This document shows positions 1,340 to 15,405 of a stretch of DNA of 32,000 nucleotides, piece after piece. The stretch's first letter is position 1. Every line of letters starts with the position of its first letter. The notes below the pieces were generated by a model that was not told the DNA's origin, made no database searches, and worked only from the letters and a program-made list of their open reading frames with translations. Position numbers and translations under genes: made by a program. The stretch comes from Cylindrospermopsis raciborskii Cr2010 (GTDB taxonomy: Bacteria > Cyanobacteriota > Cyanobacteriia > Cyanobacteriales > Nostocaceae). The stretch spans positions 3,725,846 to 3,757,845 of the forward strand of contig NZ_CP065936.1 of the NCBI RefSeq assembly GCF_003367075.2, given 5' to 3'.

Positions 1340-3025
1340 CTAACCCACCATTTCCTGTTCCTCACGCCATAACTGATATAACCGATTGGCTGGAATTGTT
1401 AAATATAAAATGTCCCCCGGACTTAAATTAGTTTCTAACAAATCCCAACCATGTAGGGTTTGATTATTGGTTTCTACATATAAAGGCACAAAATCCGCAT
1501 ATCTAGCTACGTCCTTTACCCACTGACCACAAAAGGGGTGATTAGGACTAATCAATGTTGCAAAGGCTACCCATAAGTTATCACCTATAATACCATTGCC
1601 AATAATTCTTCCCCCCAATGCAGCAGCAGCAAATGCTGGCGCTGCTAATTCTGCAGGACTTAATACTGCTTCAAAACCAAATACTTGTTTGGCCATTCCC
1701 GCAAAATCAGGGTCAGCATAATTCACCACTACGGGAATTTTTGGGGCTAAACCTTTAGCTTTTAAGGCAATTTCTAAATTGATTGCATCGTTATTAGTTA
1801 CCGCTAAAACTGCATTTGCTGTATCTATATTACTAGTTTGTAAGGTTGTCCGAAAACTGGCATCCGCTAATATCACCGGAATGCCCATTCCCCTAGCTGT
1901 GCTTACATATTTATTATGAGTATCAGTTTCAATTACTACTACTTCATTACCACTGGCATTTAATTGCTGCACAATTTTAATCCCAATCCCACTTAAACCA
2001 CAAACAATATAATGGTGTCTTTGAGGAATTCTCGCTGCATCCCAAAATTGTTTCAGACGACTTCCTAAGACGAAATCTGTTAACATGGCATACCAAAGAC
2101 CAAATACCACTGCTCCTGCTAACATCATAACAATTGTGAATACTTTAATGCTGTTTGGTGCTGCTTCCACAACTTTATCATTACCACCCGCACCTGTAAT
2201 CATCCCTACAGCAAAATATAAGGCATCCACAAATGAAATATTTAATTTGGCATATACATAAGTAAGTGTGGCAATTAAAATGATTATAAATAATACTATT
2301 GCCATGGCAATTACTGATTGGGCATGCTTCTGAAAATGCCTAATACTGGTGAGGATTTTAATTATTTTCCTAGCCCATGATTTGCGTGTGTAACTGACCC
2401 GTGGTTGAATACCAATAATCAGGCGATCGCCCATTTTTAAACGTTGTTCTGATAATACTGCGGATACCAAATTCATTTTTCCCGTGGTTGGTAAATAATA
2501 AATCAGCATTCGTGTTTTTTCTTCCCATAGGTCACTAATTTTTTTTCCTTGCCATGGATGATTGTCATCAATATATTCCTCATGAATTGGCCAGGTTTGA
2601 TCAAATAATTTAATTTCTCCTATAGCTTTATTTCCTAAAGCAGCAAAGGTAAATACGGGTGCTGCTAGACCTACAACACTCATACTCAGATGATCTATCA
2701 GGGTATGATCTAAACGTTCTCCTAAATTAGTATTATAAAATCGGTTAATAATGCGAATATTAGGATTTAGTACCCGAGCTTGCATCATAACTGATAAATT
2801 TATACCATCATCAGCTGTGGCAATTACTAGAGTATGTGCCTGTTCAACTCCTGCTGCTTGTAGGGTAGAAGCTGCACATAGCTCTCCAATAATCACATCT
2901 CCTGTAGTTTCCCCTGCAATGGGTCTACGATGAATACCAACAACTAGGGCGCCCTGTTGTCTCAGTAGACGAAAGATCTTATAACCAGTTCGACCTAATC
3001 CACAAACAATAATTCGAGGTTTCAT
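1340..3025 (-). CDS. Two-TM ion channel flanked by two RCK/TrkA-N NAD-binding domains (potassium channel family protein)
   Basis: Two Rossmann GxGxxG motifs are present: IIVCGLGRTGYKI at the N-terminus and YIVCGLSGIGIKI after the pore. The layout is TM1, pore helix, filter-like MITGAGGND, then TM2 at residues ~237-320. Confidence 0.75.
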   Translation of the reverse strand: MKPRIIVCGLGRTGYKIFRLLRQQGALVVGIHRRPIAGETTGDVIIGELCAASTLQAAGVEQAHTLVIATADDGINLSVMMQARVLNPNIRIINRFYNTNLGERLDHTLIDHLSMSVVGLAAPVFTFAALGNKAIGEIKLFDQTWPIHEEYIDDNHPWQGKKISDLWEEKTRMLIYYLPTTGKMNLVSAVLSEQRLKMGDRLIIGIQPRVSYTRKSWARKIIKILTSIRHFQKHAQSVIAMAIVLFIIILIATLTYVYAKLNISFVDALYFAVGMITGAGGNDKVVEAAPNSIKVFTIVMMLAGAVVFGLWYAMLTDFVLGSRLKQFWDAARIPQRHHYIVCGLSGIGIKIVQQLNASGNEVVVIETDTHNKYVSTARGMGIPVILADASFRTTLQTSNIDTANAVLAVTNNDAINLEIALKAKGLAPKIPVVVNYADPDFAGMAKQVFGFEAVLSPAELAAPAFAAAALGGRIIGNGIIGDNLWVAFATLISPNHPFCGQWVKDVARYADFVPLYVETNNQTLHGWDLLETNLSPGDILYLTIPANRLYQLWREEQEMVG

Positions 3026-3048
3026 GAAATATCAGCACAATTGTCACT

Positions 3049-3076
3049 AATACTCTGTATTTAATACTCTGTATTT
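3049..3076. repeat. Perfect tandem duplication of the 14-bp unit AATACTCTGTATTT
   Basis: Positions 3049-3062 and 3063-3076 are identical. The repeat lies in the spacer upstream of the channel gene start. Confidence 0.9.
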
Positions 3077-3194
3077 ATTTGTATTTATAATTGATTTCTC
3101 CCAATATAACTGTATCTCCACATACGGTATAGAATACTGGGAGATTAAATATTTCAGAATAGACCCATTGTTAATAAACGACTTAACAAATGAA

Positions 3195-4793
3195 TTAATA
3201 ACCAAAACTATCCTCAGCTATGGGAAAAGCATAGTTAGAGAATAGGGAGTAATGATTAATTTCATTATTGGTTTCTTGGTCGAGCACATGAATAACCCGA
3301 TTATGAATTTCTTCTGCTTGTTCAGGGGAATTGCCAATGCTAGTTAAACCTAGTTTGCCAAACTGAGAAATACAACCCATCAGATGAAATACAGTTCCTG
3401 TTTCTGTTCCACTCTCAAAATGTAATCGGTGATGGGCAATAATATCCATTAAGTCACTGGGTAATAGCCCACGGTAGGAGTCTTTTTGTAAATTGTCCGT
3501 AGCAACATAATATTTAGGTTTTCCTTGCTGACTGTAAAATAACCCGGTGGATAAATCATAGCTCCCATTGGTTAATAACTTTAAAGTCATAAAGGGGTGA
3601 GTAGTACCGCCTTTACGTAAATTAATTTCAATAGCTTGGATATCCCATTTACCATTACCTTGATCCACTACTACAAAATCCACGCCAAATCTTTCCAATG
3701 CTCCTTTTTCTGCCAGTTTTTTGCCTACAGCTAAACCAATATCTTGTAATTCTACTCTATAATTCTCATTAGCTGGAAACCGACACCCTAGATAAATTTG
3801 TCCATCCGGACCACCTAGAATTTGATCATGGGTGGAAAGTATTTCTACTGTCCCATCGGGGGTGATTCTTCCCTGCACACTGGGAGAATATTTGATTTCA
3901 CCTTCTATAAATGATTCGGCGATCGCTCCCATTTCTAAAATAAGTTGAGAGAAGGTTATCCAATTTTCTTGTTGAGCTTGAAAACGTAGATTGACAAAGC
4001 TTTTTTCAATGGCTTCTGCTCTTTCAACATGGTTGGTTTTACCGGGAGCAAAATCTCTTAAAGGAAACAAATTTAAGATGGCATTTCCCTTTCCAGATAT
4101 ACCCTGGTTTAGTTTGACAACTATTTTTTTTAAATGTGGTTGACGTTCCCACAACTTAGCCACTTCCCTGGCCAGCTCTTTTGCATTCCAGACCAACTTA
4201 CTACCATCTGGATGAGGTACACCAGTTTGGGCAAAAATTTCTCGACTACCACTTTTTGTTCCCCAAATCTGTAAATCTGGCGCAGCAGCATACAGAGGTA
4301 TATTCAGTTTTAGAGATAACTCTGCTTCCCAAAATGTGGAGTTATAACAACTTATAAAAGCTTTATCTACCTGTAATGCTTGGCGTATTCTTTCTATTAA
4401 TCGGGGGCGTTCTAAGATTTTTTGACTGAGCGGTTTTAAAGAAGAATCGTAGGTAGAAAGCATTAATAGACGATGGCGAGCATGGGAAAAAGGAATTCCC
4501 GGTAGCAATTGTAAATAATAGTCAATAATGCTAGGATGTATGGGCATTGATGTGACATAAATTAATCTATTTCGGGGGTTGCGCAAACGAATGAGAGAAA
4601 ATAGTAATCTTTCTTCATAATGCTCGCAACCTTGAACTTTTTCTAGTTCTCGCTGATCAATACTCAAGGAAGGTATGATTAAAATATCAGTCTCACTATT
4701 GTCAAATATCTCACTGGGTTTCCATCGCTCCCCTAGGGTTGATTGTAAACTACGAAATTGTTCAATTCCTGGTAATATATCTTTCTCAGTCAT
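3195..4793 (-). CDS. ATP-grasp family carboxylate-amine/peptide ligase-like protein (PGM1-like), function unknown
   Basis: The C-terminal half has ATP-grasp hallmarks: VVKLNQGISGKGN, SFIEGE, FGVDFVV ... IQAIEINLRKGGTTHP. The ORF is long and uninterrupted at 532 aa. Confidence 0.6.
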   Translation of the reverse strand: MTEKDILPGIEQFRSLQSTLGERWKPSEIFDNSETDILIIPSLSIDQRELEKVQGCEHYEERLLFSLIRLRNPRNRLIYVTSMPIHPSIIDYYLQLLPGIPFSHARHRLLMLSTYDSSLKPLSQKILERPRLIERIRQALQVDKAFISCYNSTFWEAELSLKLNIPLYAAAPDLQIWGTKSGSREIFAQTGVPHPDGSKLVWNAKELAREVAKLWERQPHLKKIVVKLNQGISGKGNAILNLFPLRDFAPGKTNHVERAEAIEKSFVNLRFQAQQENWITFSQLILEMGAIAESFIEGEIKYSPSVQGRITPDGTVEILSTHDQILGGPDGQIYLGCRFPANENYRVELQDIGLAVGKKLAEKGALERFGVDFVVVDQGNGKWDIQAIEINLRKGGTTHPFMTLKLLTNGSYDLSTGLFYSQQGKPKYYVATDNLQKDSYRGLLPSDLMDIIAHHRLHFESGTETGTVFHLMGCISQFGKLGLTSIGNSPEQAEEIHNRVIHVLDQETNNEINHYSLFSNYAFPIAEDSFGY

Positions 4794-5234
4794 ATTTTTT
4801 CTCCCTAATATATACTAGTTAATATATATCCCAGGTAAGACTCTTTTGGCTGATTTTATCTGTATATTTTTGTAAATTTTTTTAGCTATAAATTGATTGA
4901 GAAAAGTCAATTATTAAATCAGTTATCAGTATATTGAATTAGCTATGCCCAATAGATATCTAATCTATATCTGAAGAGTGATAAAATCAGGTTTTTTTTT
5001 ACTTCCGATGCACGATAAATAACCAAGAATTAACAGTTAAATTAAGAGCAGATAAACGGGATCAAGCCTTCATGATCAGTGATTATCTAATGGTTAGAAA
5101 TAATTGGATTAAGAGCCTATGAAGGGATGGTTACGCTCATTTATGGACGAATATGTTACTAACTGAGTGTACCAATATCCAATCATCAAGTCTCAAGTTG
5201 TTAACAGCTCCCAGGAACGAAAGCAGAAAATAAG

Positions 5235-5272
5235 TTTCTCAAAATGAGTTTTTAAAAACTTGTTTTGAGAAA
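5235..5272 (-). terminator. Probable Rho-independent terminator downstream of the pyruvate-kinase-like gene
   Basis: TTTCTCAAAA (5235-5244) pairs perfectly with TTTTGAGAAA (5263-5272), and inner GTTTTT/AAAAAC pairs extend the stem. On the minus strand the hairpin is followed by CTTATTTTCTGCTT. It lies 37 nt past the stop codon. Confidence 0.5.
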
Positions 5273-5308
5273 TTTACCTATAGATACTTAAAACCTATTT
5301 CTTATCAA

Positions 5309-6853
5309 TTAAATGGTGTCGTCCCCTGAAGCAGAAAAGTTCTCCCAGGAACGCAGGGCCCGCAATTGGGGGGTTTTCTTTAATTGATGGGCTTCCATCC
5401 TAGTAAGCACATCATCTAAGATGGTGACAGCTTGGGTAATAAATGGTCCCTTATTCAACATAACACATTCAGCTCTTTCGGCCATAGCTGCATCTGTCAT
5501 TTCTCCACGAGATGGGGCACCTTCCTTGACTAAACTCTCTAATACCTGAGTTGCCCAAATCACTGGAACGTGCGCAGCTTCACACAACCACAGAATTTCT
5601 TCTTGTATCTCTGCTAATCTTTGATAGCCAATTTCTACCGCTAGATCCCCCCTAGCAATCATTACTCCAAAGGGGTGTTTCCCCGCTGCATGAACAATTA
5701 GTTCGGGTAGGTTAGTAACTGCTACAGCGGTTTCAATCTTGGCAATAATCGCTGGATGTTCTCCCTGCAAGCATCTTTGCGCCAGTTCGCTTTGTAATAG
5801 TTGGATATCTGTTGTTTGTTGGACAAAGGAATAACCAATAATGTCCGCATGGGTAGCTAGGAAGTCTAAATCAGTTAGATCCTTTGGTGTGAGCGGAATT
5901 AGGGGTAATACTATGTTGGGAAAATTTAGTCCCTTTTCTGGAGATAGCTTCACTCCCTTGGGTTTAGCATGGGTCACCTCCAATAAAAACCCAGAACTAC
6001 CATCTGGTAAAGGATAATCTTGATCAACTACCCGAGTACGTAATTTACCATCGTCAATATAAACTAAGGTGCCCACTGTTAGTAAGTCCAGAATTTCTGG
6101 TACTGTACAACTAATGTGAATATTATCTATAGGATCTGCGATCGCTTGGTTAGATAAACTACGACACAAAACAATTAAATCTCCTCGGAAGACGCGATTT
6201 TTACCTGCAGGGGCTAAAACTATTTCGGTGCGAATTTTTGGACCACCTAAATCCATCATCACTGTACATTGAGATGAAAGTTCTTGTTCAGCTTGACGAA
6301 TGTTCTGAATCATCTTTTCCCAAATAATAGGATTGTCATGGGCGCAGTTTATTCTTAAACAAGTTGCACCTCGCTCAATTATCTCCCGCACCATTTCATA
6401 TTCACTAGCAGCTTCTGTGGGTAGGGTGACCATAATTCTCACCCGACGATGGGGTAACGCTGGACCAAATAAGCACTCTGTCTGTTCTCTTAACCTATTC
6501 TCTCCCTCAAAAAAAGATGTGAGAACAGGACGAGTAACAGGAGCAGGAATGGGAACTTCGCAAATTAATGCTAGAGTAGCAATAACCGCATCTAGATTAG
6601 CCATCACCCTTGCTTCTATACGACCCAAAGAAGATAAACCCCAAGGCATAAGAGCAGCTTGCAAAGGACGCAGGTCGTGTCTCCGCAGGGCTAAATACTG
6701 GGCTAGGTTGAGGGCGCTAGGGAGAAATTGGGAACGCTGGATGTGCGATCGCCATTGGTCAAAAATAGCTTTCCCATCTCTTTCTACTGCTTCTCGAAGG
6801 TTGAGCAAGCTATCTAATAAGATGGGTGGACTTGAGAGATCTGTAATATTCAT
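5309..6853 (-). CDS. Pyruvate kinase-like protein, divergent: N-terminal extension and no C-terminal allosteric domain
   Basis: PK barrel motifs are recognisable but altered: RVRIMVTLP, LRINCAHD, MMDLGGPKIRT, AKIET, VMIARGDLAVEIG, ATQVLESL, PSRGEMTDAA, CVMLNKGP. Confidence 0.7.
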   Translation of the reverse strand: MNITDLSSPPILLDSLLNLREAVERDGKAIFDQWRSHIQRSQFLPSALNLAQYLALRRHDLRPLQAALMPWGLSSLGRIEARVMANLDAVIATLALICEVPIPAPVTRPVLTSFFEGENRLREQTECLFGPALPHRRVRIMVTLPTEAASEYEMVREIIERGATCLRINCAHDNPIIWEKMIQNIRQAEQELSSQCTVMMDLGGPKIRTEIVLAPAGKNRVFRGDLIVLCRSLSNQAIADPIDNIHISCTVPEILDLLTVGTLVYIDDGKLRTRVVDQDYPLPDGSSGFLLEVTHAKPKGVKLSPEKGLNFPNIVLPLIPLTPKDLTDLDFLATHADIIGYSFVQQTTDIQLLQSELAQRCLQGEHPAIIAKIETAVAVTNLPELIVHAAGKHPFGVMIARGDLAVEIGYQRLAEIQEEILWLCEAAHVPVIWATQVLESLVKEGAPSRGEMTDAAMAERAECVMLNKGPFITQAVTILDDVLTRMEAHQLKKTPQLRALRSWENFSASGDDTI

Positions 6854-6941
6854 GATCCTGGTTCACCTGAAGCAGTTCGCTACCGTAACCAATGATAATC
6901 TGGTTTTGTACAAACCGCTTTATCTTCATCCATTGGACACT

Positions 6942-7580
6942 ATGGCACTCAACTTATATCTGCTACGGCATGGCGAAACAAATTTTAGTCAAAGTGGCAA
7001 TTTCTGTGGTGAAACGGATGCACAATTGACACCGGAAGGAAACCAGATGGCTCATAGTTTTGCTGATGTTTATAAAAATTTATTTTGGGAAGCTGTTTAT
7101 GTGAGTCCTATGAAACGAACCATTGCTACAGCTCAACCTTTTTGTGATGCAACTGGTCTAAATATGCAGTTAAGAACTGGTATCCGAGAAGGTAGTTATG
7201 GAGAATGGGAAACCAAAAGCAAGTCCTTTGTTCAGGAAAATTATACTGAAAACTATATTAAATGGTTGACGGAGTCCGCATGGAATGCACCTCAAGGAGG
7301 AGAAACAGCTGTAGAAATTGCTAACCGATCTATTCCCGTAATTAGGGAAATTAAAGAAAAACACCATCAGGGTAATGTTTTGCTGGTCTCCCATAAGGCT
7401 ACGATTCGGATTATACTTTGCAGTCTACTGGGAATTGATTTAGGATGCTACAGATATCGTATTAATATTTTGGTAGCATCACTTAGCATGGTTAGGTTTG
7501 ATGTTAATGGTCCTATGTTAGAAATGTTGGGCGATCGCAATCACATACCAGAACATCTCCGTCTCCGTCCGGGAACCTAA
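6942..7580 (+). CDS. Histidine phosphatase family protein (phosphoglycerate-mutase-like)
   Basis: The protein starts MALNLYLLRHGETNFSQSG, which carries the RHG catalytic motif, and has LVSHKATIR later. I chose the ATG at 6942 because the upstream part of ORF 6333-7580 is antisense to the pyk-like gene. Confidence 0.8.
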   Translation: MALNLYLLRHGETNFSQSGNFCGETDAQLTPEGNQMAHSFADVYKNLFWEAVYVSPMKRTIATAQPFCDATGLNMQLRTGIREGSYGEWETKSKSFVQENYTENYIKWLTESAWNAPQGGETAVEIANRSIPVIREIKEKHHQGNVLLVSHKATIRIILCSLLGIDLGCYRYRINILVASLSMVRFDVNGPMLEMLGDRNHIPEHLRLRPGT

Positions 7581-7604
7581 TGGAGCAGAAGATTGGTATG
7601 AAGA

Positions 7605-8033
7605 TTATGATGCTGCTCCCTTTTTATGCTTTACTTCTACCACCATATGTACGTTACCACGAGGATTAAAATCAGCTTTTACAGTCATTTCTAAGGGTGC
7701 ACAGGCAATAACCAGATCATCTAATATTTGATTGGTCACTTCCTCGTGGGAAATGTACTTGTCCCGGTAGCTGTTAATATATAACTTTAACGCTTTTAAC
7801 TCTACTACTCTTTGGTCTGGTATGTAGGCAATATGAATCGTGGCAAAGTCGGGATAACCGGAAAAAGGACATTTACAGGTAAATTCAGGTAAGGTAATAT
7901 CAATTGTGTATTCCCTACCTACGCGAGGATTGGGAAAGGTAATTAGTTTGCCCTCTTCGATTTCTCGCTCACCATATTTTACTTCTTTAACGGGGTCTTC
8001 ACTTGGTAGAATGTTACTGACGGAATGACTCAT
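7605..8033 (-). CDS. queF: NADPH-dependent 7-cyano-7-deazaguanine (preQ0) reductase
   Basis: The size (142 aa) fits a unimodular QueF. The catalytic-Cys region FTCKCPFSGYPDFATI and the QueF motif VELKALKLYINSYR are both present. Confidence 0.9.
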   Translation of the reverse strand: MSHSVSNILPSEDPVKEVKYGEREIEEGKLITFPNPRVGREYTIDITLPEFTCKCPFSGYPDFATIHIAYIPDQRVVELKALKLYINSYRDKYISHEEVTNQILDDLVIACAPLEMTVKADFNPRGNVHMVVEVKHKKGAAS

Positions 8034-8095
8034 AATTATTGGGACTAACTAAAAAGCACATATAAATCATAATGTTTTATGATACAAAAAAATTT

Positions 8096-8455
8096 CTATC
8101 CCCCCCAGTCGGGACACTTTTCCCCATCCCAACCATAGGGATGCATGGCACAAACCAGTAGGTTCCCACCATATACTTCTCCATGATAATTACTACAACC
8201 CACACATGCAGGATTTTTCAGTGAATCAGCTTCCACCTCATATGGGAGGTTAGGATCTTCCAGATCCCAATAGAACCCCACCACCGGTTCTAACAACTCA
8301 CTTAAACACGTACCTGCACTCCCAACCTGTTCGCCAATTTCCTCGGTTAAATCGAAAAGAGTATCCACTATCTCATCGATTTCCTCGAATAGTCTTTCTG
8401 CTTCACCAGATACGGTTAAAACAATATCAAGTAATTCTTCTTGCCACCATGTCAT
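8096..8455 (-). CDS. Hypothetical protein with an acidic helical N-terminal half and a C-terminal four-Cys module
   Basis: The ORF is 119 aa. The C-terminus reads NPACVGCSNYHGEVYGGNLLVCAMHPYGWDGEKCPDW, giving a CxxC...C...C pattern. It is co-oriented with its neighbours and separated by short gaps. Confidence 0.55.
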   Translation of the reverse strand: MTWWQEELLDIVLTVSGEAERLFEEIDEIVDTLFDLTEEIGEQVGSAGTCLSELLEPVVGFYWDLEDPNLPYEVEADSLKNPACVGCSNYHGEVYGGNLLVCAMHPYGWDGEKCPDWGG

Positions 8456-8496
8456 AGGTTTTCATGCAATAGCTAAACCAAATTGCATCTTTATTA

Positions 8497-8799
8497 TCAC
8501 TTGTCTTTCTCTTCCACCTCTTCCACATCCACTATTTCTATCAAACGAGGTTCTGCGGGGGTGGTTTTATCTGAGTCTGGTGCTGTACCCCGAGACTGCT
8601 GAGCCTGTTGGATCATCTCCTCCACAAAACGGCGAGCTTCCTCCGTGGTCATCTGTCCCTTTGCTTCCATTTCCTCCGCTAATTTTTCAATTTGCGATCG
8701 CATTTGGTTGAGGGTTTCACCACCTCTTTCGCCAGCATAAGCCGCTAGACCTACACCTAGGTAAAAAGCTTTTTCTACAAGTTTTCCAAAAGCGGGCAT
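8497..8799 (-). CDS. Hypothetical small helical protein (phasin-like sequence flavour)
   Basis: The ORF is 100 aa. It has a hydrophobic N-terminal helix (KAFYLGVGLAAYAGE) followed by charged helices and an acidic tail. An AGGAG Shine-Dalgarno lies at 8816-8812. Confidence 0.55.
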   Translation of the reverse strand: MPAFGKLVEKAFYLGVGLAAYAGERGGETLNQMRSQIEKLAEEMEAKGQMTTEEARRFVEEMIQQAQQSRGTAPDSDKTTPAEPRLIEIVDVEEVEEKDK

Positions 8800-8816
8800 T
8801 GCCGTAAAGCACTCCT

Positions 8817-8922
8817 AAAAATGGGGGAACCCGGAGACTACGCCTACCACAAGCATCCCGTATTGCTGCTACCTTCCGGTCCTGACAAGGTTTAGGCGTT
8901 GAGATCGCATAGATCCAGGTCT
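8817..8922 (-). ncRNA. ffs: Signal recognition particle RNA (small bacterial 4.5S type)
   Basis: The minus strand reads ...CCUUGUCAGGACCGGAAGGUAGCAGCAAUACGG..., which is the conserved domain IV with its GGAA tetraloop. The 5' ACCUGGA pairs with the 3' UCCGGGU. The RNA ends in CCCCCAUUUUU, and its length of ~106 nt fits the family. Confidence 0.8.
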
Positions 8923-8928
8923 GAATTT

Positions 8929-8958
8929 ATAATAACACGAAATTTCTAAAATGGTCAA
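8929..8958 (-). promoter_or_regulatory. Sigma70-type promoter for the SRP RNA
   Basis: On the minus strand there is TTGACC (8958-8953), an 18-nt spacer and TATTAT (8934-8929). The predicted start at ~8922 coincides with the 5' arm of the terminal SRP helix. Confidence 0.5.
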
Positions 8959-9231
8959 CTATTCTAAAACAATTTTCCACTCGTGCAGTTGGTAATTAAC
9001 ACAACCGTTAATTACCAAAGGATCTGCGCTAACAATTGCCTGGGCTTCTTCCATAGAATCTGCCTCAAATAACATCATCCCTCCACCTTTTCTCGCCCAG
9101 TAACCAGTTTTAGCTTTATGTCCTTTGTCTATTAGTGCTTTTACGTATTCTCTATGGGCTGGCACATACTGATCAAAGGTGGCTTTATCCACTAGGCCTG
9201 CTTCTATTTTGACAAACCAAGGCATATTCAC
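8959..9231 (-). CDS. YciI family protein
   Basis: The ORF is 90 aa and has YciI-like features: HREYVKALIDKGH, GGMMLFEADSMEEAQAIVSADP, W at the C-terminus. Confidence 0.75.
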   Translation of the reverse strand: MNMPWFVKIEAGLVDKATFDQYVPAHREYVKALIDKGHKAKTGYWARKGGGMMLFEADSMEEAQAIVSADPLVINGCVNYQLHEWKIVLE

Positions 9232-9417
9232 TAAGCATTTACAACTGACTACACAATACCATGAATTGACTGTTTCCGCTGTTAATAATTCTTAACATTA
9301 GGTGGTTGCCAATTTTTTATAGAACAAATATACTAATAAGGTAGTGGAACCTTCCAGCTGTAGGGTGGGATTGGTTACCCGGTTCATTGTGTTGATCAAT
9401 TAAGTAGGAGGCAAATT

Positions 9418-10152
9418 ATGACGAACATTGATTCACTATTATCTAGTCATCAAGCATTATTAGAAGAACATGCTAAGCAGATTGGATACCAAATCGTAAA
9501 TATACGCCAGATTGTAGATAAGCGAATGAAGGAGATTCATGATGGGGAAGATCATTTACTAGAAGCCCAGTGTGTCGGGTTAAATAGGATAATTGATACT
9601 TTACGGACTGATGCTAGATGTATATTATTTACAGAGGGATTTAAAAATTTTCTAGGCAAACTTGATCACATAGAGTATAGTTGGGACGTGGATTATATAG
9701 ACATAATTAGAACGGATCCAAGTAATTGGATGTTGGCAAATTTTAAATTGCCCATAGGTTTAATGGATTACAAGGTTATAGAGTGTACGAATGCCTATGA
9801 TGATGAAGAATTTTATACCGGGTATGAGCATGTAGTGTCATTAGAGATAGACGGAGAAAAAAGTCCCTTAATATTAAATTACAGTCGCGACCGTGATCAG
9901 TATATCGAAGAATGTTCTCTGGCAGAAATCGTACAAGAATACGGAGACTGTGATTTTGAAAGGATCTTGGAAAGTATTACCGAAAAAGAGGAAGAAATTC
10001 AACAGTTAGGTCGGGAGATTGCCATACTGGTAGTCTATTCAATCAGTTTGTTTACACTAAAACCATCCGTGTCAGTGTTTGAATATAATTCATCAATTCC
10101 GGAAAAGTACTTATCCTGGTTTGCGCCTCCCAAGATATCTGATAACTGTTAA
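9418..10152 (+). CDS. Hypothetical protein, paralog A of a tandem pair (no family recognised)
   Basis: The ORF is 244 aa. A strong AGGAGG Shine-Dalgarno at 9406-9411 lies 6 nt before the ATG. It shares motifs with the next gene along its whole length. Confidence 0.7.
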   Translation: MTNIDSLLSSHQALLEEHAKQIGYQIVNIRQIVDKRMKEIHDGEDHLLEAQCVGLNRIIDTLRTDARCILFTEGFKNFLGKLDHIEYSWDVDYIDIIRTDPSNWMLANFKLPIGLMDYKVIECTNAYDDEEFYTGYEHVVSLEIDGEKSPLILNYSRDRDQYIEECSLAEIVQEYGDCDFERILESITEKEEEIQQLGREIAILVVYSISLFTLKPSVSVFEYNSSIPEKYLSWFAPPKISDNC

Positions 10153-10203
10153 GTTATAGATTTACGGTTGCCATTTTTCAACTATATCCATACAAGTAAA
10201 ACT

Positions 10204-10905
10204 ATGACTAGTATAGACAAAATACTGTTAAAATACAAAGTATTAGTCGAAACCCATGCTAATCGATTTCTTCCTCAACTTGATGCTTTATACCATTTCG
10301 TAGATGAGTCCATGAAAGAGATTCAAAATACTGAAAGAGAAATATTAGAATCACAGAATGTAGAGCTGAAGAAGATAATTGATGCTTTGCAGGTTGATCC
10401 TCGTATTTTGTTATCGACGGACGAATTTAAGCAGTTTGTAGAGATCCTAGGAATAGCCGAGTGTTGGTGGGAGTGGGAAGAATTAGAGGATCTACCTGCT
10501 ATTGACAAAGATCCTACCAATTGGTTACTGGCAAAATTACAACTGCCTTTAATTATTAGGGATTATCAAGAATTTGAGGATCCTTATGCCTATGATGACA
10601 CAAGCACATATACCTTGTATGGATATAAAATTTCCCTAAAACTAGGAAATAGAATATGTACTATGGAGGTAGAGCGTAGGCGTGTTTATGAAAACAGATG
10701 CAAAGAGTTTTCTCCGGAGAAGCAGATTGCCTACTACATCTTATCTCCCATTAGGGATCTATTAAGAAGTATGAATTACTCAGAACAAGAAATAGACCAG
10801 CTAGGGGGAGAGATGGGCATATTAGTTTTTTATGTGGCCAAGCTTTTTGAGTTAAAACCTACAGTGTCAGTATTTGAATACAATTCAATGAAAAGAATTT
10901 ATTAG
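10204..10905 (+). CDS. Hypothetical protein, paralog B of the tandem pair
   Basis: The ATG at 10204 gives MTSIDKILL, which aligns with MTNIDSLLS of paralog A; the track's TTG start at 10168 adds 12 unaligned residues. Shared motifs are VD..MKEI, IID.L, DP(S/T)NW.LA, AYDD, EI.QLG and LKP(S/T)VSVFEYNS. Confidence 0.7.
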   Translation: MTSIDKILLKYKVLVETHANRFLPQLDALYHFVDESMKEIQNTEREILESQNVELKKIIDALQVDPRILLSTDEFKQFVEILGIAECWWEWEELEDLPAIDKDPTNWLLAKLQLPLIIRDYQEFEDPYAYDDTSTYTLYGYKISLKLGNRICTMEVERRRVYENRCKEFSPEKQIAYYILSPIRDLLRSMNYSEQEIDQLGGEMGILVFYVAKLFELKPTVSVFEYNSMKRIY

Positions 10906-10916
10906 GAAATAAACAG

Positions 10917-11738
10917 ATGGAATTATATTTTAGTACTTCTGCCTATGGTGGAACATCAACCCGTCAAGTTTTGACCATGTTCTGGGAATTAGGAATCAAG
11001 GAGGTAGAACTAGCAATTGGTCCACGCTGTGATCGGGATGCAGTCAAAGCGATTACAGAATTTCAGCAAAAAGGCATGACTTATAGGGCTCATCATGCCT
11101 TTGTGTGGGGAGAAACTCACAAAAGCTTCAACCTAGCGGAACCCCAGGAATGGAGCTATTTTGAGCGCATGATGGACTGGTTAGGAGATTTAAAAGTAAC
11201 AGCGTATTCTGTTCATGGAGGAGATTTTCATAGAGGTCAAGAGAGAGAAAAAGCCTATGGGCAGTTTAAAGAAAATGTTCAAAATTTACAACAAATCTGT
11301 GAAAAGCGGGGAATTGTCCTGGGGGTAGAGACCATGTATCCCACACCTCCTAATAGTTGGAATTACTATCTGTTGGATAACAGTTGGGAATTGACCCGAT
11401 TTTGTGAGGAGCTACCTGAGATGAAAATCGTAGTTGATTTAGCACATGTTAATATTTGGCGTAATCAGAGCTTGTCAGAAAAACTAGAGTGGCTAAAACT
11501 TCCATCAGAGAGGATTTTGGAGATTCATATATCTGATAACGATGGCAAAAGAGATATACATTCACCAATTACAGACAGCACCTGGTGGGTTCCATACGCA
11601 GCACAGATTCCTAGAGCAATCCCCATCGTAATAGAGAGTAGATTAAATAGGTTTCCCCCATCAATTGTCAAAGAACAGTACTTGTACACCCACAACCTGC
11701 TCAACCACAGTCCATCAACTTCCCTCGTCTCCAGGTAA
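10917..11738 (+). CDS. Xylose-isomerase-like TIM-barrel protein (sugar phosphate isomerase/epimerase / AP-endonuclease-2 superfamily)
   Basis: The spacing of metal-ligand-type motifs is typical of the fold: AYSVHGG, VLGVETMY, VVDLAHVNIW, LEIHISDNDGKRDIH. The gene starts 11 nt after paralog B. Confidence 0.7.
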   Translation: MELYFSTSAYGGTSTRQVLTMFWELGIKEVELAIGPRCDRDAVKAITEFQQKGMTYRAHHAFVWGETHKSFNLAEPQEWSYFERMMDWLGDLKVTAYSVHGGDFHRGQEREKAYGQFKENVQNLQQICEKRGIVLGVETMYPTPPNSWNYYLLDNSWELTRFCEELPEMKIVVDLAHVNIWRNQSLSEKLEWLKLPSERILEIHISDNDGKRDIHSPITDSTWWVPYAAQIPRAIPIVIESRLNRFPPSIVKEQYLYTHNLLNHSPSTSLVSR

Positions 11739-11773: not shown

Positions 11774-13924
11774 ATGACTGCGTTTTTATTAGAAGTTGGC
11801 ACAGAAGAACTACCAGCAAGCTTTTTGAGTAGCGCGATTACACAATGGCGATCGCGCATTCCCCAAATGCTGGAAGCTCATGGTCTCCCCATAGAAAAAG
11901 TAGCGGTTTTTGGTACCCCTCGTAGATTAGCAGTGCTGATCACCGGGTTACCATCCCAGCAACTGGATCGGGAAGAAGAAATTAAGGGACCACCTGCCCA
12001 AGCAGCATTTAAAGATGGTAAACCAACCAAAGCAGCAGAAGGGTTCGCTAAAAAGCAAGGGGTAGAATTATCTGCTTTAGAGGTTCGTTCTACAGATAAG
12101 GGGGATTTTATCTTTGTCAATAAAAAGACCCCAGGGAGACCCATAACAGAAATTTTGACCGAACTAGTTCCCCAATGGGTTTGGAGCTTAGAAGGAAAGC
12201 GGTTAATGCGCTGGGGGAGTGGGGATGGGAGGTTTTCTCGTCCTATTCGCTGGTTAGTTGCTTTATTGGATGGGGATGTTTTACCCTTAGAATTAAGAAA
12301 TGGGGAAAAAATAGTTAAGAGCGATCGCATTTCCTGGGTACATAGGGTTTTACATCGGGGAAGGGTGAGTATTTCCCATGCGACAGAATATGTGGAAACA
12401 TTGGCCAATGGTTATGTGATAGTTTGTCCAGAGGAGCGGGAGAAAATAATTGTAGAGCAGGTAAATAGAGCTGTAGAAGAGTTGGGTGGTTGTACAGAAA
12501 TCTATCCAGAGTTGTTGGCAGAAACTACCAATTTAGTAGAATATCCCACAGCGGTGGTGGGTAGATTTGAAGATGAATTTCTCCAATTACCAACAGAAGT
12601 ATCCACCACTGTCATGGTTACCCACCAGCGTTACTTCCCAGTTTTTAAAAACCGGGATGGAAGAGAACTACTACCAAACTTTGTCACCATATCCAATGGC
12701 GATCCAGCAAAATCAGATATTATTGCACTGGGTAATGAGAGAGTAATTCGAGCGCGGTTAGCAGATGGGAGATTTTTCTATGAAGCGGATTTAGCCAAGT
12801 CTCTAGAAGAGTTTTTACCCCAATTAGAAACAGTTACATTTCAAGAAGATCTAGGTTCTGTGCGAGCCAAAGTCACAAGAATCGGGAATATAGCCCAGGT
12901 GATTTGTCAACAATTGGGATTAGGAGAAACTGAAACCGAGAGAGTGCAAAGAGCTGCTCTATTGTGCAAAGCGGATTTAGTCACCCAAATGGTATATGAA
13001 TTTCCCGAATTACAAGGTATCATGGGTGAAAAATATGCCCTAGCTAGTAGAGAGGATGAGGAAGTAGCTAAAGCCATTTTTGAGCATTATCTACCCAGAA
13101 ATGCTGATGACATTTTGCCCACCACCCTCACAGGGAAAATCGTGGGCTTAGCTGATAGACTAGATACCCTAATTAGCATCTTTGGTTTAGGTTTAATTCC
13201 CTCTGGTTCCTCCGATCCCTTTGCCTTACGTCGGGCCGCCAATGCCATTGTGAATATTACCTGGGTTGCTAACCTACCAATAAATTTGGAGTATTTATTA
13301 GAGTACACAGCAACTTCCTTTGCTCACACTTTCCATAAAGATGCTCAATCTTTAATATCCATCCTGCGAGAATTTTTCATCCAACGTATTCGCACCCTAC
13401 TCCAAGAAGAAAAACACATAGATTACGATCTAGTTAACGCCGTGTTAGGAGAACAGGATCCGGAATATATAGAACGCGCACTACAGGATCTACTAGACAT
13501 TCGCGATCGCGCCACCTATCTACAACAAATCCGCCATAATGGCACCCTAGAGAGAATCTATGAAACCATCAATCGTTCCACTAGGTTAGCAGCACAGGGG
13601 GATTTAGACTTGCAACAGTTAATCCCGGATGAATTAATTAATCCCACATTGTTTCAAAAATCATCCGAGACTGCCCTTTATCAAGCCCTAGTAGCATTAG
13701 TGCCCCAGACCCAACTTGCACAACAAACGCGCAACTATCAGTTACTAATAGCCGCCCTGGAAAAAATTGCCCCCACGGTCAGCCAATTCTTTGACGGAGA
13801 AGATAGTGTGCTAGTTATGGATCCAGACCCACACATTAAACGCAATCGGTTGAATTTACTAGGTCTACTACGTAACCACGGTCGAATTTTAGCAGATTTT
13901 GGAGCCATCGTCAAAAACTTGTAG
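11774..13924 (+). CDS. glyS: Glycine--tRNA ligase beta subunit
   Basis: The protein starts [17 protein letters not shown] and contains TPRRLAV, FRPIRW-like [18 protein letters not shown] and DPFALRR. The ATG at 11774 is preferred over the track start at 11753. Confidence 0.92.
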
Positions 13925-14004: not shown

Positions 14005-15405
14005 ATGCCAAAAGCCATTGTAATGGGATTAGGAAAGTCCGGTATTGCTGCGGCGAGATTGTTGAAACAGGAAGGATGGGAGGTAGAAATTTGGGACAGT
14101 AATACCTCCCCATTTCTCCTGGAACAACAACAAAAACTTGCCCAGGAACAAATCACTGTCAAATTAGGAAATAACCCAGAATTAAAAGAGAACCAGTTAC
14201 CAAAATTAATCGTAGTTAGTCCAGGAGTTCCATGGGATATTCCTCTGCTGGTTAAAGCACGAGAAATGGGAATAGAAACCATGGGAGAAATGGAACTAGC
14301 ATGGAGACAACTACAAAATATTCCCTGGGTGGGAATTACCGGTACTAATGGTAAAACCACCACTACAGCTTTAACAGCGGCTATTTTTCAAGCAGCTGGT
14401 CTTCATGCTCCTGCTTGTGGTAACATTGGTTATGCTGTAGCGGAAGTAGCTCTAGAAGTAGCTTTAGGCGCAAAACCACCAGACTGGGTGATAGGGGAAC
14501 TCAGTAGTTACCAAATAGAATCTTCCTGGAGTCTTTTTCCTCACATAGGAATTTGGACGACTTTTACACCAGACCATTTAGCTCGTCACAAAACTCTAGA
14601 AAACTACTATGATATTAAAGCTAAACTGCTGAGAAACTCCCGCTTACAAATTATTAATGGTGACGACGCTTATTTAAGTAAAGTTGGTTTACAACATTGG
14701 CCCCATGCTTACTGGACAAGTGTCAAAGGACTAGGTCATTTAATAGGGGGAAAAGGGTTTTATATAGAAAATGGCTGGGTAACGGAAAAACTATCTGCTG
14801 ATTCTGAACCTCAACCAATAGTAGCAGTCACAGATCTAAAAATGGTGGGAGAACATAATCAGCAAAACCTACTCATGTCAGTGGGAGCAGCAAGATTAGC
14901 TGGAATAGAAATTGCTGCTATCAACCATGGAGTCCAACAATTTCCCGGGGTTCCCCACCGCTTACAACATGTTTGTACCTGGGAAGGAATTGAATTCATC
15001 AATGATAGTAAAGCGACAAACTACGATGCAGCTGAAGTAGGTTTAACATCGGTAAAAAGTCCAACAATTTTAATAGCTGGTGGTGAAGCAAAAGCAGGAG
15101 ACGACACAGGTTGGTTGAAGAGAATTCAAGAGAAAACCGCAGCGGTATTATTAATTGGTAGTGCTGCTGAAACTTTTAGTAAAAGGTTAGAAACTGTAGG
15201 GTATGGTAACTTTGAAATTGTGGAGACTATGGAAAAAGCCATTCCCAGAGCTGCACAATTGGCTAAACAGCACCAAGCCACCACGGTTTTATTATCACCA
15301 GCTTGTGCTAGTTTTGATCAGTATGCCAACTTTGAAGTTAGGGGTGAGCATTTTCAGCAATTATCGCTAGAATGGGCCAGTTCAGCAATTACTAACAACT
15401 CCTAG
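14005..15405 (+). CDS. murD: UDP-N-acetylmuramoyl-L-alanine--D-glutamate ligase
   Basis: The N-terminal Rossmann motif [13 protein letters not shown], the P-loop [14 protein letters not shown], and NDSKATN and SPACASFD are all present. Confidence 0.92.

Follow-up and report, generated by a model that had tools for sequence, protein, structure and literature searches.

The analysis reported here concerns a stretch of 32,000 nucleotides (nt) of the genome of Cylindrospermopsis raciborskii Cr2010 (NCBI RefSeq assembly GCF_003367075.2, contig NZ_CP065936.1, positions 3,725,846 to 3,757,845 of the forward strand), hereafter the window, and within it a compact cassette of three genes located between a yciI-like gene and glyS. 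Two of these genes, denoted A and B, are tandem paralogs, and the third, denoted TIM, encodes a xylose-isomerase-like TIM-barrel enzyme. We are confident, at a probability of roughly 0.9, that this cassette is a chromosomally fixed copy, with a duplicated partner gene, of a horizontally mobile two-gene module, A-TIM, the two proteins of which function together. As to the mechanism, the sequence patterns make it a serious possibility, which we put slightly below even odds, that TIM is a multi-metal phosphodiesterase or nuclease and A its obligate gate, sensor or antitoxin-like partner, so that the pair would constitute a defence or addiction module. The three genes are the following:

9418-10152, forward strand: gene A, 244 amino acids (aa), from the list of open reading frames (ORFs)
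10204-10905, forward strand: gene B, 233 aa counted from the ATG, in an open frame that extends from a TTG at 10168
10917-11738, forward strand: TIM, 273 aa, xylose-isomerase-like TIM barrel of the family PF01261

The start of gene B was placed at the ATG that matches the amino-terminal motif of the A family, MT.ID. The intergenic gaps are 51 nt (A/B) and 11 nt (B/TIM), and the stop codon of TIM lies 35 nt upstream of the glyS ATG, at 11774. This head-to-tail arrangement, with the same coordinates and distances, had been reported in a preliminary description drawn from the sequence alone, which also took A and B for tandem paralogs about one third identical and the third protein for a TIM barrel. 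All of this holds: A and B align end to end with 38% identity and 56% positives (E 3e-45, far beyond chance) and contain all the common motifs that had been listed, namely MT(N/S)ID, AYDD, DP(S/T)NW, EI.QLG and LKP.VSVFEYNS, and the window TIM matches PF01261 with 62.3 bits against a gathering cut-off of 31.1, as do all 37 members of its subfamily that we aligned.

Across genomes, the unit that recurs is the pair of A and TIM. A scan with the TIM alignment, covering one genome per species, yielded 80 loci, on the six-frame ORFs of which hidden Markov models (HMMs) of A and TIM were then run; 52 of these loci (L010-L061) contain this TIM subfamily. An A-family gene adjoins TIM, nearly always directly upstream, in 51 of the 52, and the pair is found in Nostocales, Leptolyngbya, Chamaesiphon, Phormidesmis, Chroococcidiopsis and one member of the Polyangiaceae. 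Only one locus (L053) has an intact TIM and no A-family gene, and in another (L054) the gene order is TIM-A. In 16 of the 19 loci that were checked, a Shine-Dalgarno-like motif for TIM, typically GGAGG, lies inside the last codons of A, and at these coupled loci the A stop codon usually overlaps the TIM ATG (TGATG or TAATG). The pairwise distances among A proteins and among TIM proteins are closely correlated (r = 0.96, Mantel 0/999, 44 distinct pairs); in inheritance and divergence, A and TIM behave as a single unit. Thus, of the trio that was originally proposed, the link between the A family and the TIM barrel is well supported by its presence in 51 of 52 loci and by the correlated divergence, whereas the trio as such is not the conserved unit, the pair being found instead. 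Nor is there a conserved third gene at other loci, judging by the clustering of flanking ORFs of at least 70 aa in about 60 loci.

Several features of individual loci may be recorded here. In Leptolyngbya-type loci (L056, L058, L053 and L063), a Cys-rich protein of about 155 aa (..CYGFCCGDGWFDLIWQL..), exemplified by L058 2605-3075 and without a match in Pfam or PADLOC, recurs directly downstream of TIM. The gene that follows TIM in L097 (10830-11330) is annotated as DUF4240, and in Nostoc loci the recurrent downstream genes encode a HEAT-repeat protein or an unannotated 235-aa protein on the opposite strand. An apparent A-TIM fusion, a 454-aa ORF in the Polyangiaceae locus (L057), was rejected, the TIM frame there being extended upstream such that it overlaps A in another frame.

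The second paralog tells a different part of the story. A single A gene accompanies TIM at about 45 loci. The neighbour-joining tree unites A and B with an orphan paralog, P0003, which is encoded elsewhere in a Cylindrospermopsis genome without an adjacent TIM (L001), in one clade that is sister to the partners from Nostocales, a grouping which implies that the duplications are lineage-specific. The Nostocales partners are 46% identical to B compared with 40% to A, the tree branch of B is the shorter one, and B adjoins TIM and has a carboxy-terminus like those of the canonical partners; gene B is probably the ancestral partner copy. The intact trio is common in the lineage of the window, occurring on 85 or more contigs: C. 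raciborskii Cr2010 has an annotated protein with exactly the B sequence, and the cluster of sequences more than 90% identical to it is found on 85 contigs. In the sister lineage, most of the gene has been removed, as follows from the alignment:

10277-10719, forward strand: segment of gene B lost in the sister lineage, 443 nt, not a multiple of 3 and hence frameshifting

The deletion is present in the C. raciborskii assembly GCA_049958775.1 (L006) and in three metagenome contigs (L007-L009), where only the 5' and 3' remnants of B are left, both detected by the HMM, in the syntenic order queF, two small genes, yciI, A, TIM, glyS, murD. Raphidiopsis brookii D9 (L010) is syntenic as well, and all that can still be detected of B there is its 5' end. 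Because a frameshifting deletion has disrupted B in this sister Cylindrospermopsis/Raphidiopsis lineage and has left A and TIM intact and conserved, B is, on the comparative evidence, dispensable. Scans of metagenomes for further intact copies of B returned no usable loci.

These comparisons bear directly on the model put forward in the preliminary description, in which the retained pair of A and B forms an obligatory hetero-oligomer that works with TIM. There is something to be said for it, given that A and B are both intact on at least 85 Cylindrospermopsis contigs and that two divergent copies of the A subfamily flank or precede one TIM independently in Leptolyngbya (L045 and L056). However, with a single partner in the majority of loci and with B deleted in the sister lineage, down to a remnant in R. 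brookii D9, such a complex is not the rule, and we consider an obligatory A:B association very unlikely. Decay in relatives, which that description had named as an observation that would tell against its proposal, has indeed befallen B, whereas A and TIM have been spared. In one C. raciborskii assembly, all three cassette genes are annotated as fragments, of 140, 170 and 144 aa (TPX27250.1, TPX27251.1 and WP_258316449.1), which reflects either decay of the whole cassette in this strain or frameshift errors in the assembly.

Multiplication of the partner is not limited to Cylindrospermopsis. A-family genes are found without TIM, alone in L001 and as a fusion in L094, and in Leptolyngbya at least two A paralogs surround one TIM in L045 (A-TIM-A), L056 (A-A-TIM), L097 (two) and L100 (four or five). 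In the latter two loci the paralogs are positioned as follows:

L097, 7151-7771 and 9209-9904: A paralogs
L100 (Leptolyngbya sp. NIES-3755 plasmid3), 1861-2514, 7087-7353, 8525-8980, 9801-10514 and 14399-15031: A paralogs, some of them partial

Those in L100 are spread along a long co-directional array of small hypothetical genes that includes a single TIM. The partner family has expanded well beyond the enzyme, and the recurrence of this expansion suggests that extra A partners can be useful.

The module moves horizontally and is found repeatedly in defence or mobile-element contexts. Copies reside on plasmids typed as conjugative (pNSMS102 of Nostoc MS1 and a plasmid of Aulosira laxa) as well as on plasmid3 of Leptolyngbya NIES-3755, typed as non-mobilizable, and on a plasmid of Anabaena azotica. 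Modules adjoin genes for tyrosine integrases, relaxase/MobC and CyRepA-type replicases, and one is located near Tn7-type TniQ/TnsD and integrase genes, with a GmrSD_N gene on the same stretch. Five module loci are present in Leptolyngbya AN10, and the genes are split at about 7 of the 52 loci. Elsewhere, defence-type neighbours include DndB, NACHT, UvrD with PD-(D/E)XK, DUF87, TGT and GmrSD_N. Among 50,697 phage records there is no copy of the module, and a single distant relative, with 24% identity, is found in IMG/VR. In Scytonema hofmanni UTEX 2349 (NZ_KK073767.1), two integrase-A-TIM blocks that score identically with the HMMs, each with a 1436-aa ORF after it, are found about 27 kb apart in opposite orientation (L017 30854-47618 and L018 57415-74179).

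In Cylindrospermopsis itself, the cassette is cargo of a variable slot rather than a member of a housekeeping operon. The yciI-glyS slot was compared through homologues of YciI, an exact look-up of the YciI-like protein of the window having given no match, and in two other genomes it lacks both A and TIM and is occupied by different genes:

Okeanomitos corallinicola CP150886.1 (L092), 2705-4362: LigT, an AriA/HEC-01A-like ATPase (PADLOC E 5e-21) and an HEC-01B-like 183-aa gene
Sphaerospermopsis kisseleviana (L091), 3494-4900: LigT and a phage-type lysozyme

The TIM proteins display an extensive set of invariant residues, comprising, in the alignment of 37 sequences, H59, H60, H100, E138, D174, H177, E202, H204, D207, N208, D209, D213, H215 and E240. 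Alignment of the 37-sequence profile with Escherichia coli endonuclease IV (Nfo) by hhalign spans the whole barrel, at a non-significant E value of 0.12, and places H100, E138, D174 and H177 of TIM opposite H109, E145, D179 and H182 of Nfo, and H204, D213, H215 and E240 opposite H216, D229, H231 and E261. Together with H69, these are the nine positions that we take, from the published structure, to be the ligands of the three metals of endonuclease IV, and eight of the nine are in register. TIM and Nfo belong to the same superfamily, are of the same size and share the local motifs HxG, DxxH, H(I/L)xD(N) and DxH; unlike TIM, which is mobile cargo and nearly always has an adjacent partner gene, Nfo works alone, in housekeeping repair.

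A connection of a different kind is provided by PADLOC, the PDC-M70B model of which is matched by 36 of the 37 TIM proteins (best E 3.8e-10; 3.8e-9 for the window TIM), the match being confined to positions 124-229 of the 238 in the profile, that is, to its C-terminal half. PDC-M70 is a two-gene "phage defence candidate" (FAM_01459>>FAM_02243) delineated through guilt by embedding in defence systems (10.1101/2024.01.29.577857). The two modules are alike in their two-gene layout, with the TIM-like protein second, and in their links to defence loci; they differ in the partner, which in A-TIM, given that the A family does not match PDC-M70A, is either a different protein or one diverged beyond recognition, and PDC-M70 is itself only a candidate.

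The database label of TIM, "sugar phosphate isomerase/epimerase", would imply ordinary metabolism, with TIM acting as an isomerase or epimerase of sugars or sugar phosphates and A as an accessory or regulatory subunit. The best named similarities of TIM are to D-psicose/tagatose 3-epimerases, hydroxypyruvate isomerase and L-ribulose-5-P 3-epimerase, the E-D-H-E core of which it retains; the NCBIfam model PsicseEpim gives weak matches to 17 of the 37 proteins (best E 4e-7), and a tagatose 3-epimerase in the PDB is matched at E 1e-3. Purifying selection and fixation amid housekeeping genes would suit a metabolic enzyme, too. All these matches, however, fall far below the family cut-offs, at about one tenth of them, the window TIM scoring 25.9 bits against the 300 required by the psicose/tagatose 3-epimerase equivalog model. 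Moreover, the additional invariants H59, H60, H100, D207-N208-D209, D213 and H215 exceed the epimerase site, and H100 aligns with a Trp in tagatose 3-epimerase. In about 55 loci, no sugar kinase, transporter or regulator recurs beside the pair, and there is nothing in the gene neighbourhoods to support the label. Given also the unannotated obligate partner and the plasmid-borne, multi-copy, often pseudogenised distribution, which would be unusual for an enzyme of this kind, a metabolic function is hardly to be expected.

For the A family, there is neither an annotation nor a detectable relative by fold. A and B are without a match among the models of Pfam, NCBIfam, PADLOC and PHROG, and profile searches of PDB sequences with the A family are empty. 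The confident AlphaFold model of A, built from a 49-sequence alignment (predicted local distance difference test score 89.4, predicted template modelling score 0.77), is predicted to comprise an N-terminal helix of 68 residues, short helices, a 4-stranded antiparallel sheet and C-terminal helices; when it was compared by Foldseek with the PDB and BFVD, no fold match was found (best E about 0.02-0.03, TM-score <0.25). The early impressions that A and B carry no Pfam-level motif and that the system is undescribed are thereby borne out, neither paralog matching a characterised family by profile and A having no match by fold. The product of gene A is acidic, with an isoelectric point (pI) of 4.5, and has a 19-residue C-terminal extension (..PEKYLSWF..) in common with P0003, the orphan paralog from Cylindrospermopsis. 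Acidity is a property of the whole family (pI 4.4-5.4, median 4.75), and a motif in the tail, L.P....FEY.S, is conserved close to the C-terminus.

When 1.84 billion representative sequences were scanned in full with an HMM, 111 relatives of A were obtained at E<=1e-3, 67 of them at E<=1e-10. A word-indexed search of 5.8 billion proteins had pointed to a tiny family of 7 clusters, a count that we reject as a sensitivity artefact because this full scan and the HMM scan of the loci found many more. The exact A sequence is present on 101 public Cylindrospermopsis contigs and a 100% identical TIM protein on 89, both under the record label "MULTISPECIES Cylindrospermopsis". Compared with C. raciborskii L006, the ratio of nonsynonymous to synonymous substitution rates is 0.29 for A and 0.21 for TIM, against 0.08-0.15 for the neighbouring housekeeping genes. 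The family also includes long variants of about 350-410 aa (P0169, P0216, P0232 and P0186; L059 5563-6651; L063 6765-7856) with an extra N-terminal domain of about 130 aa, MPL(F/Y)AI(L/V)H..GLH..SCTL(I/V)(E/Q)A..., which has no match in Pfam.

In one protein, the A domain is joined to a nuclease:

L094, 1883-3025: P0149, fusion of a GIY-YIG nuclease domain, at the N-terminus, to an A domain; no TIM nearby, with 3749-8509 downstream

The GIY-YIG domain scores 37.2 bits against a cut-off of 22.6, and P0149 is located immediately upstream of the DISARM genes DrmD (1133 bits) and DrmMI, beside a fragment of an ISAZ013 transposase. The fusion next to DISARM suggests, from this one example, that the A domain could pair with alternative nuclease effectors.

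The conserved ligands of TIM also invite comparison with the multinuclear iron oxidases (MNIOs), TIM barrels whose conserved site can hold as many as three irons and which form heterodimers with an adjacent, obligate partner, as in MbnB/MbnC, HvfB/HvfC and TglH/TglI (PMC11252979). TIM might be an enzyme of this type, related to MbnB, TglH or ApyH, in which case A would be its obligate partner or its substrate, converted to a modified product. The invariant His/Asp/Glu set of TIM suits such a site, and weak matches are observed to the NCBIfam model RiPP_MNIO_ApyH (7 of 37, best 4.4e-5) and to the MNIO family PF05114 (1 of 37, E 0.004, with none for the window TIM at E<=1). The several A paralogs per TIM in L100, L097, L045 and L056 are reminiscent of multi-precursor clusters, and the tail motif of the A family is conserved. 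Against this, all 37 TIM proteins belong to PF01261 and 36 of them lack any match to PF05114; the partner is encoded upstream, and its model resembles no RRE or winged-helix partner structure, of the DUF2063, DUF1772 or MbnC type, in the PDB; A is a folded protein of 230 aa, not a peptide; and no short precursor, protease or exporter gene is conserved with the pair among the clustered ORFs of at least 70 aa. The mobile-element and defence context is atypical of such clusters as well. The acidic C-terminus of A (..RED, ..EED) was considered as an ApyH-like modification substrate and rejected because these codons encode the GGAGG ribosome-binding site of TIM. On balance, an MNIO-like function appears unlikely.

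The acidity of A and the plasmid settings suggest yet another scenario, in which TIM would be a repair enzyme of the AP (apurinic/apyrimidinic) endonuclease type, and A would help plasmids or integrative elements to become established in a new host, for instance as a DNA mimic or by counteracting DNA-damaging host defences. The modules that lie beside relaxase, MobC and integrase genes, and those within long co-directional arrays of small unknown genes on plasmids, are compatible with this scenario, as are the acidic character of all A-family proteins and the endonuclease IV-like ligand pattern of TIM. Nevertheless, the model of A shows no fold similarity to the known DNA mimics in the PDB; in Cylindrospermopsis, the cassette is chromosomally stable and far from transfer genes; the module is missing from phages, in which anti-defence genes are common; and an anti-restriction protein that acts independently would need neither strict pairing with TIM nor translational coupling. 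We consider this role improbable, too.

The mechanism that we favour, while rating it a little short of an even chance, is that of a partner-controlled nuclease. The conserved core of the module is an A-family protein translationally coupled to a multi-metal TIM-barrel enzyme. Equipped with ligands like those of endonuclease IV, TIM would act as a phosphodiesterase or nuclease that depends on metals; A would be the obligate partner that holds, targets or activates TIM, much as an antitoxin or a sensor does; and the module would provide defence against phages or plasmids or else act as an addiction system, with B as an optional extra or replacement partner rather than a required subunit. We are led to this proposal by the asymmetry between the two genes, their translational coupling, the defence and mobile contexts, the relation to PDC-M70B, the GIY-YIG fusion and the endonuclease IV-like ligands. 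In its organization, the module resembles type II toxin-antitoxin and abortive infection systems: it is a compact, coupled bicistron in which the smaller, acidic and faster-evolving protein comes first, it is mobile, patchy, multi-copy and often decayed, and the first gene occurs as an orphan or in extra copies, whereas the second is found by itself only once. It differs from type II toxin-antitoxin systems in the much larger size of both A and TIM and in that no DNA-binding autoregulatory domain is detected in A.

Several observations weigh against the proposed mechanism. That TIM is a nuclease is something we infer from sequence, and the alignment with Nfo does not by itself reach significance; H69 of Nfo, the ninth ligand and the first His of the set, is not cleanly aligned, lying 5-9 residues from the invariant H59/H60, and the invariant pattern would fit multinuclear iron oxidases as well. 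The NCBIfam model of deoxyribonuclease IV (PRK01060) is matched by only one of the 37 TIM proteins, at E 6e-4 and far below the cut-off, no endonuclease IV chain is among the PDB sequence matches of TIM at E<=1, and the nearest named families by profile are the ketose 3-epimerases. On the partner side, the 49 A-family proteins give no match to PDC-M70A, the evolutionary rate of A is only 1.3-1.5 times that of TIM, a modest excess for a sensor or immunity protein, and the GIY-YIG fusion comes from a single metagenome contig of 8.5 kb. The defence contexts amount to a handful of examples, and some contexts, such as L096, look ordinary. Finally, A and TIM evolve under purifying selection and are stably maintained between housekeeping genes in Cylindrospermopsis, which would be unusual for a selfish addiction module.

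Two sequence signals lie upstream of gene A in the window:

9406-9411, forward strand: perfect Shine-Dalgarno sequence AGGAGG, separated by 6 nt from the start codon (ATG) of gene A
9306-9334, forward strand: candidate promoter-like site TTGCCA-17-TATACT, found by a consensus scan (10/12) in the yciI-A intergenic region

The strength of this ribosome-binding site had been pointed out in the preliminary description, and it is the sole AGGAGG in the 32 kb that is properly spaced ahead of a long ORF. The number of promoter-like sites in the yciI-A region does not exceed the shuffled expectation, so that the site at 9306-9334 counts as a candidate only. With 93% identity to C. raciborskii L006, compared with 88% for gene A, the intergenic region 9232-9417 is better conserved than the gene that follows it and may contain divergent promoters or a 5' leader; the relatives have a 24-nt insertion in it, near the yciI end. 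An Rfam scan detected no RNA element in this region or inside the cassette. The GC content of A and B is 0.355-0.365, compared with 0.42-0.45 for the flanking DNA. Housekeeping genes surround the cassette, as originally noted: queF, signal recognition particle (SRP) RNA, the yciI-like gene, glyS and murD. The SRP RNA gene, of the small bacterial type, occupies 8825-8921 on the reverse strand, between a 100-aa ORF (8497-8799) and the yciI-like gene, and is a full-length match to Rfam RF00169 (58.8 bits against a gathering threshold of 40).

Literature searches directed at the A-TIM pair, PDC-M70 and defence-associated xylose-isomerase-like TIM barrels turned up no account of the module in the searchable library, and the paper on the MNIO landscape mentions neither cyanobacteria nor PF01261. 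The nearest described entity, PDC-M70, itself a candidate, shares the TIM component only. A broader proposal, which we advance as a rather doubtful one, is that the A family represents a new fold that would gate or target interchangeable nucleases, the endonuclease IV-like, tri-metal TIM barrel in most loci and a fused GIY-YIG domain in one, and that together they would make up an undescribed, mainly cyanobacterial family of immune systems directed against mobile elements and spread by plasmids and integrative elements, in which a wider range of targets would be sensed through the expansion of A paralogs, represented by A and B in the window and by as many as five copies in Leptolyngbya plasmids.

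The defence and addiction systems of cyanobacteria are poorly charted, and the bloom-forming Cylindrospermopsis/Raphidiopsis group is of ecological and toxicological importance. In this setting, A-TIM is a clean, well-defined and easily testable two-gene unit, and the yciI-glyS slot serves usefully to mark variable cargo across the genomes of Nostocales. If TIM proved to be an MNIO-like modifier, this class of enzymes would be extended to a new type of partner. If, as we favour, it is a nuclease controlled by its partner, a TIM-barrel class of effectors would be added to the repertoire of bacterial immunity or addiction, and the PADLOC candidate PDC-M70 would acquire a meaning.

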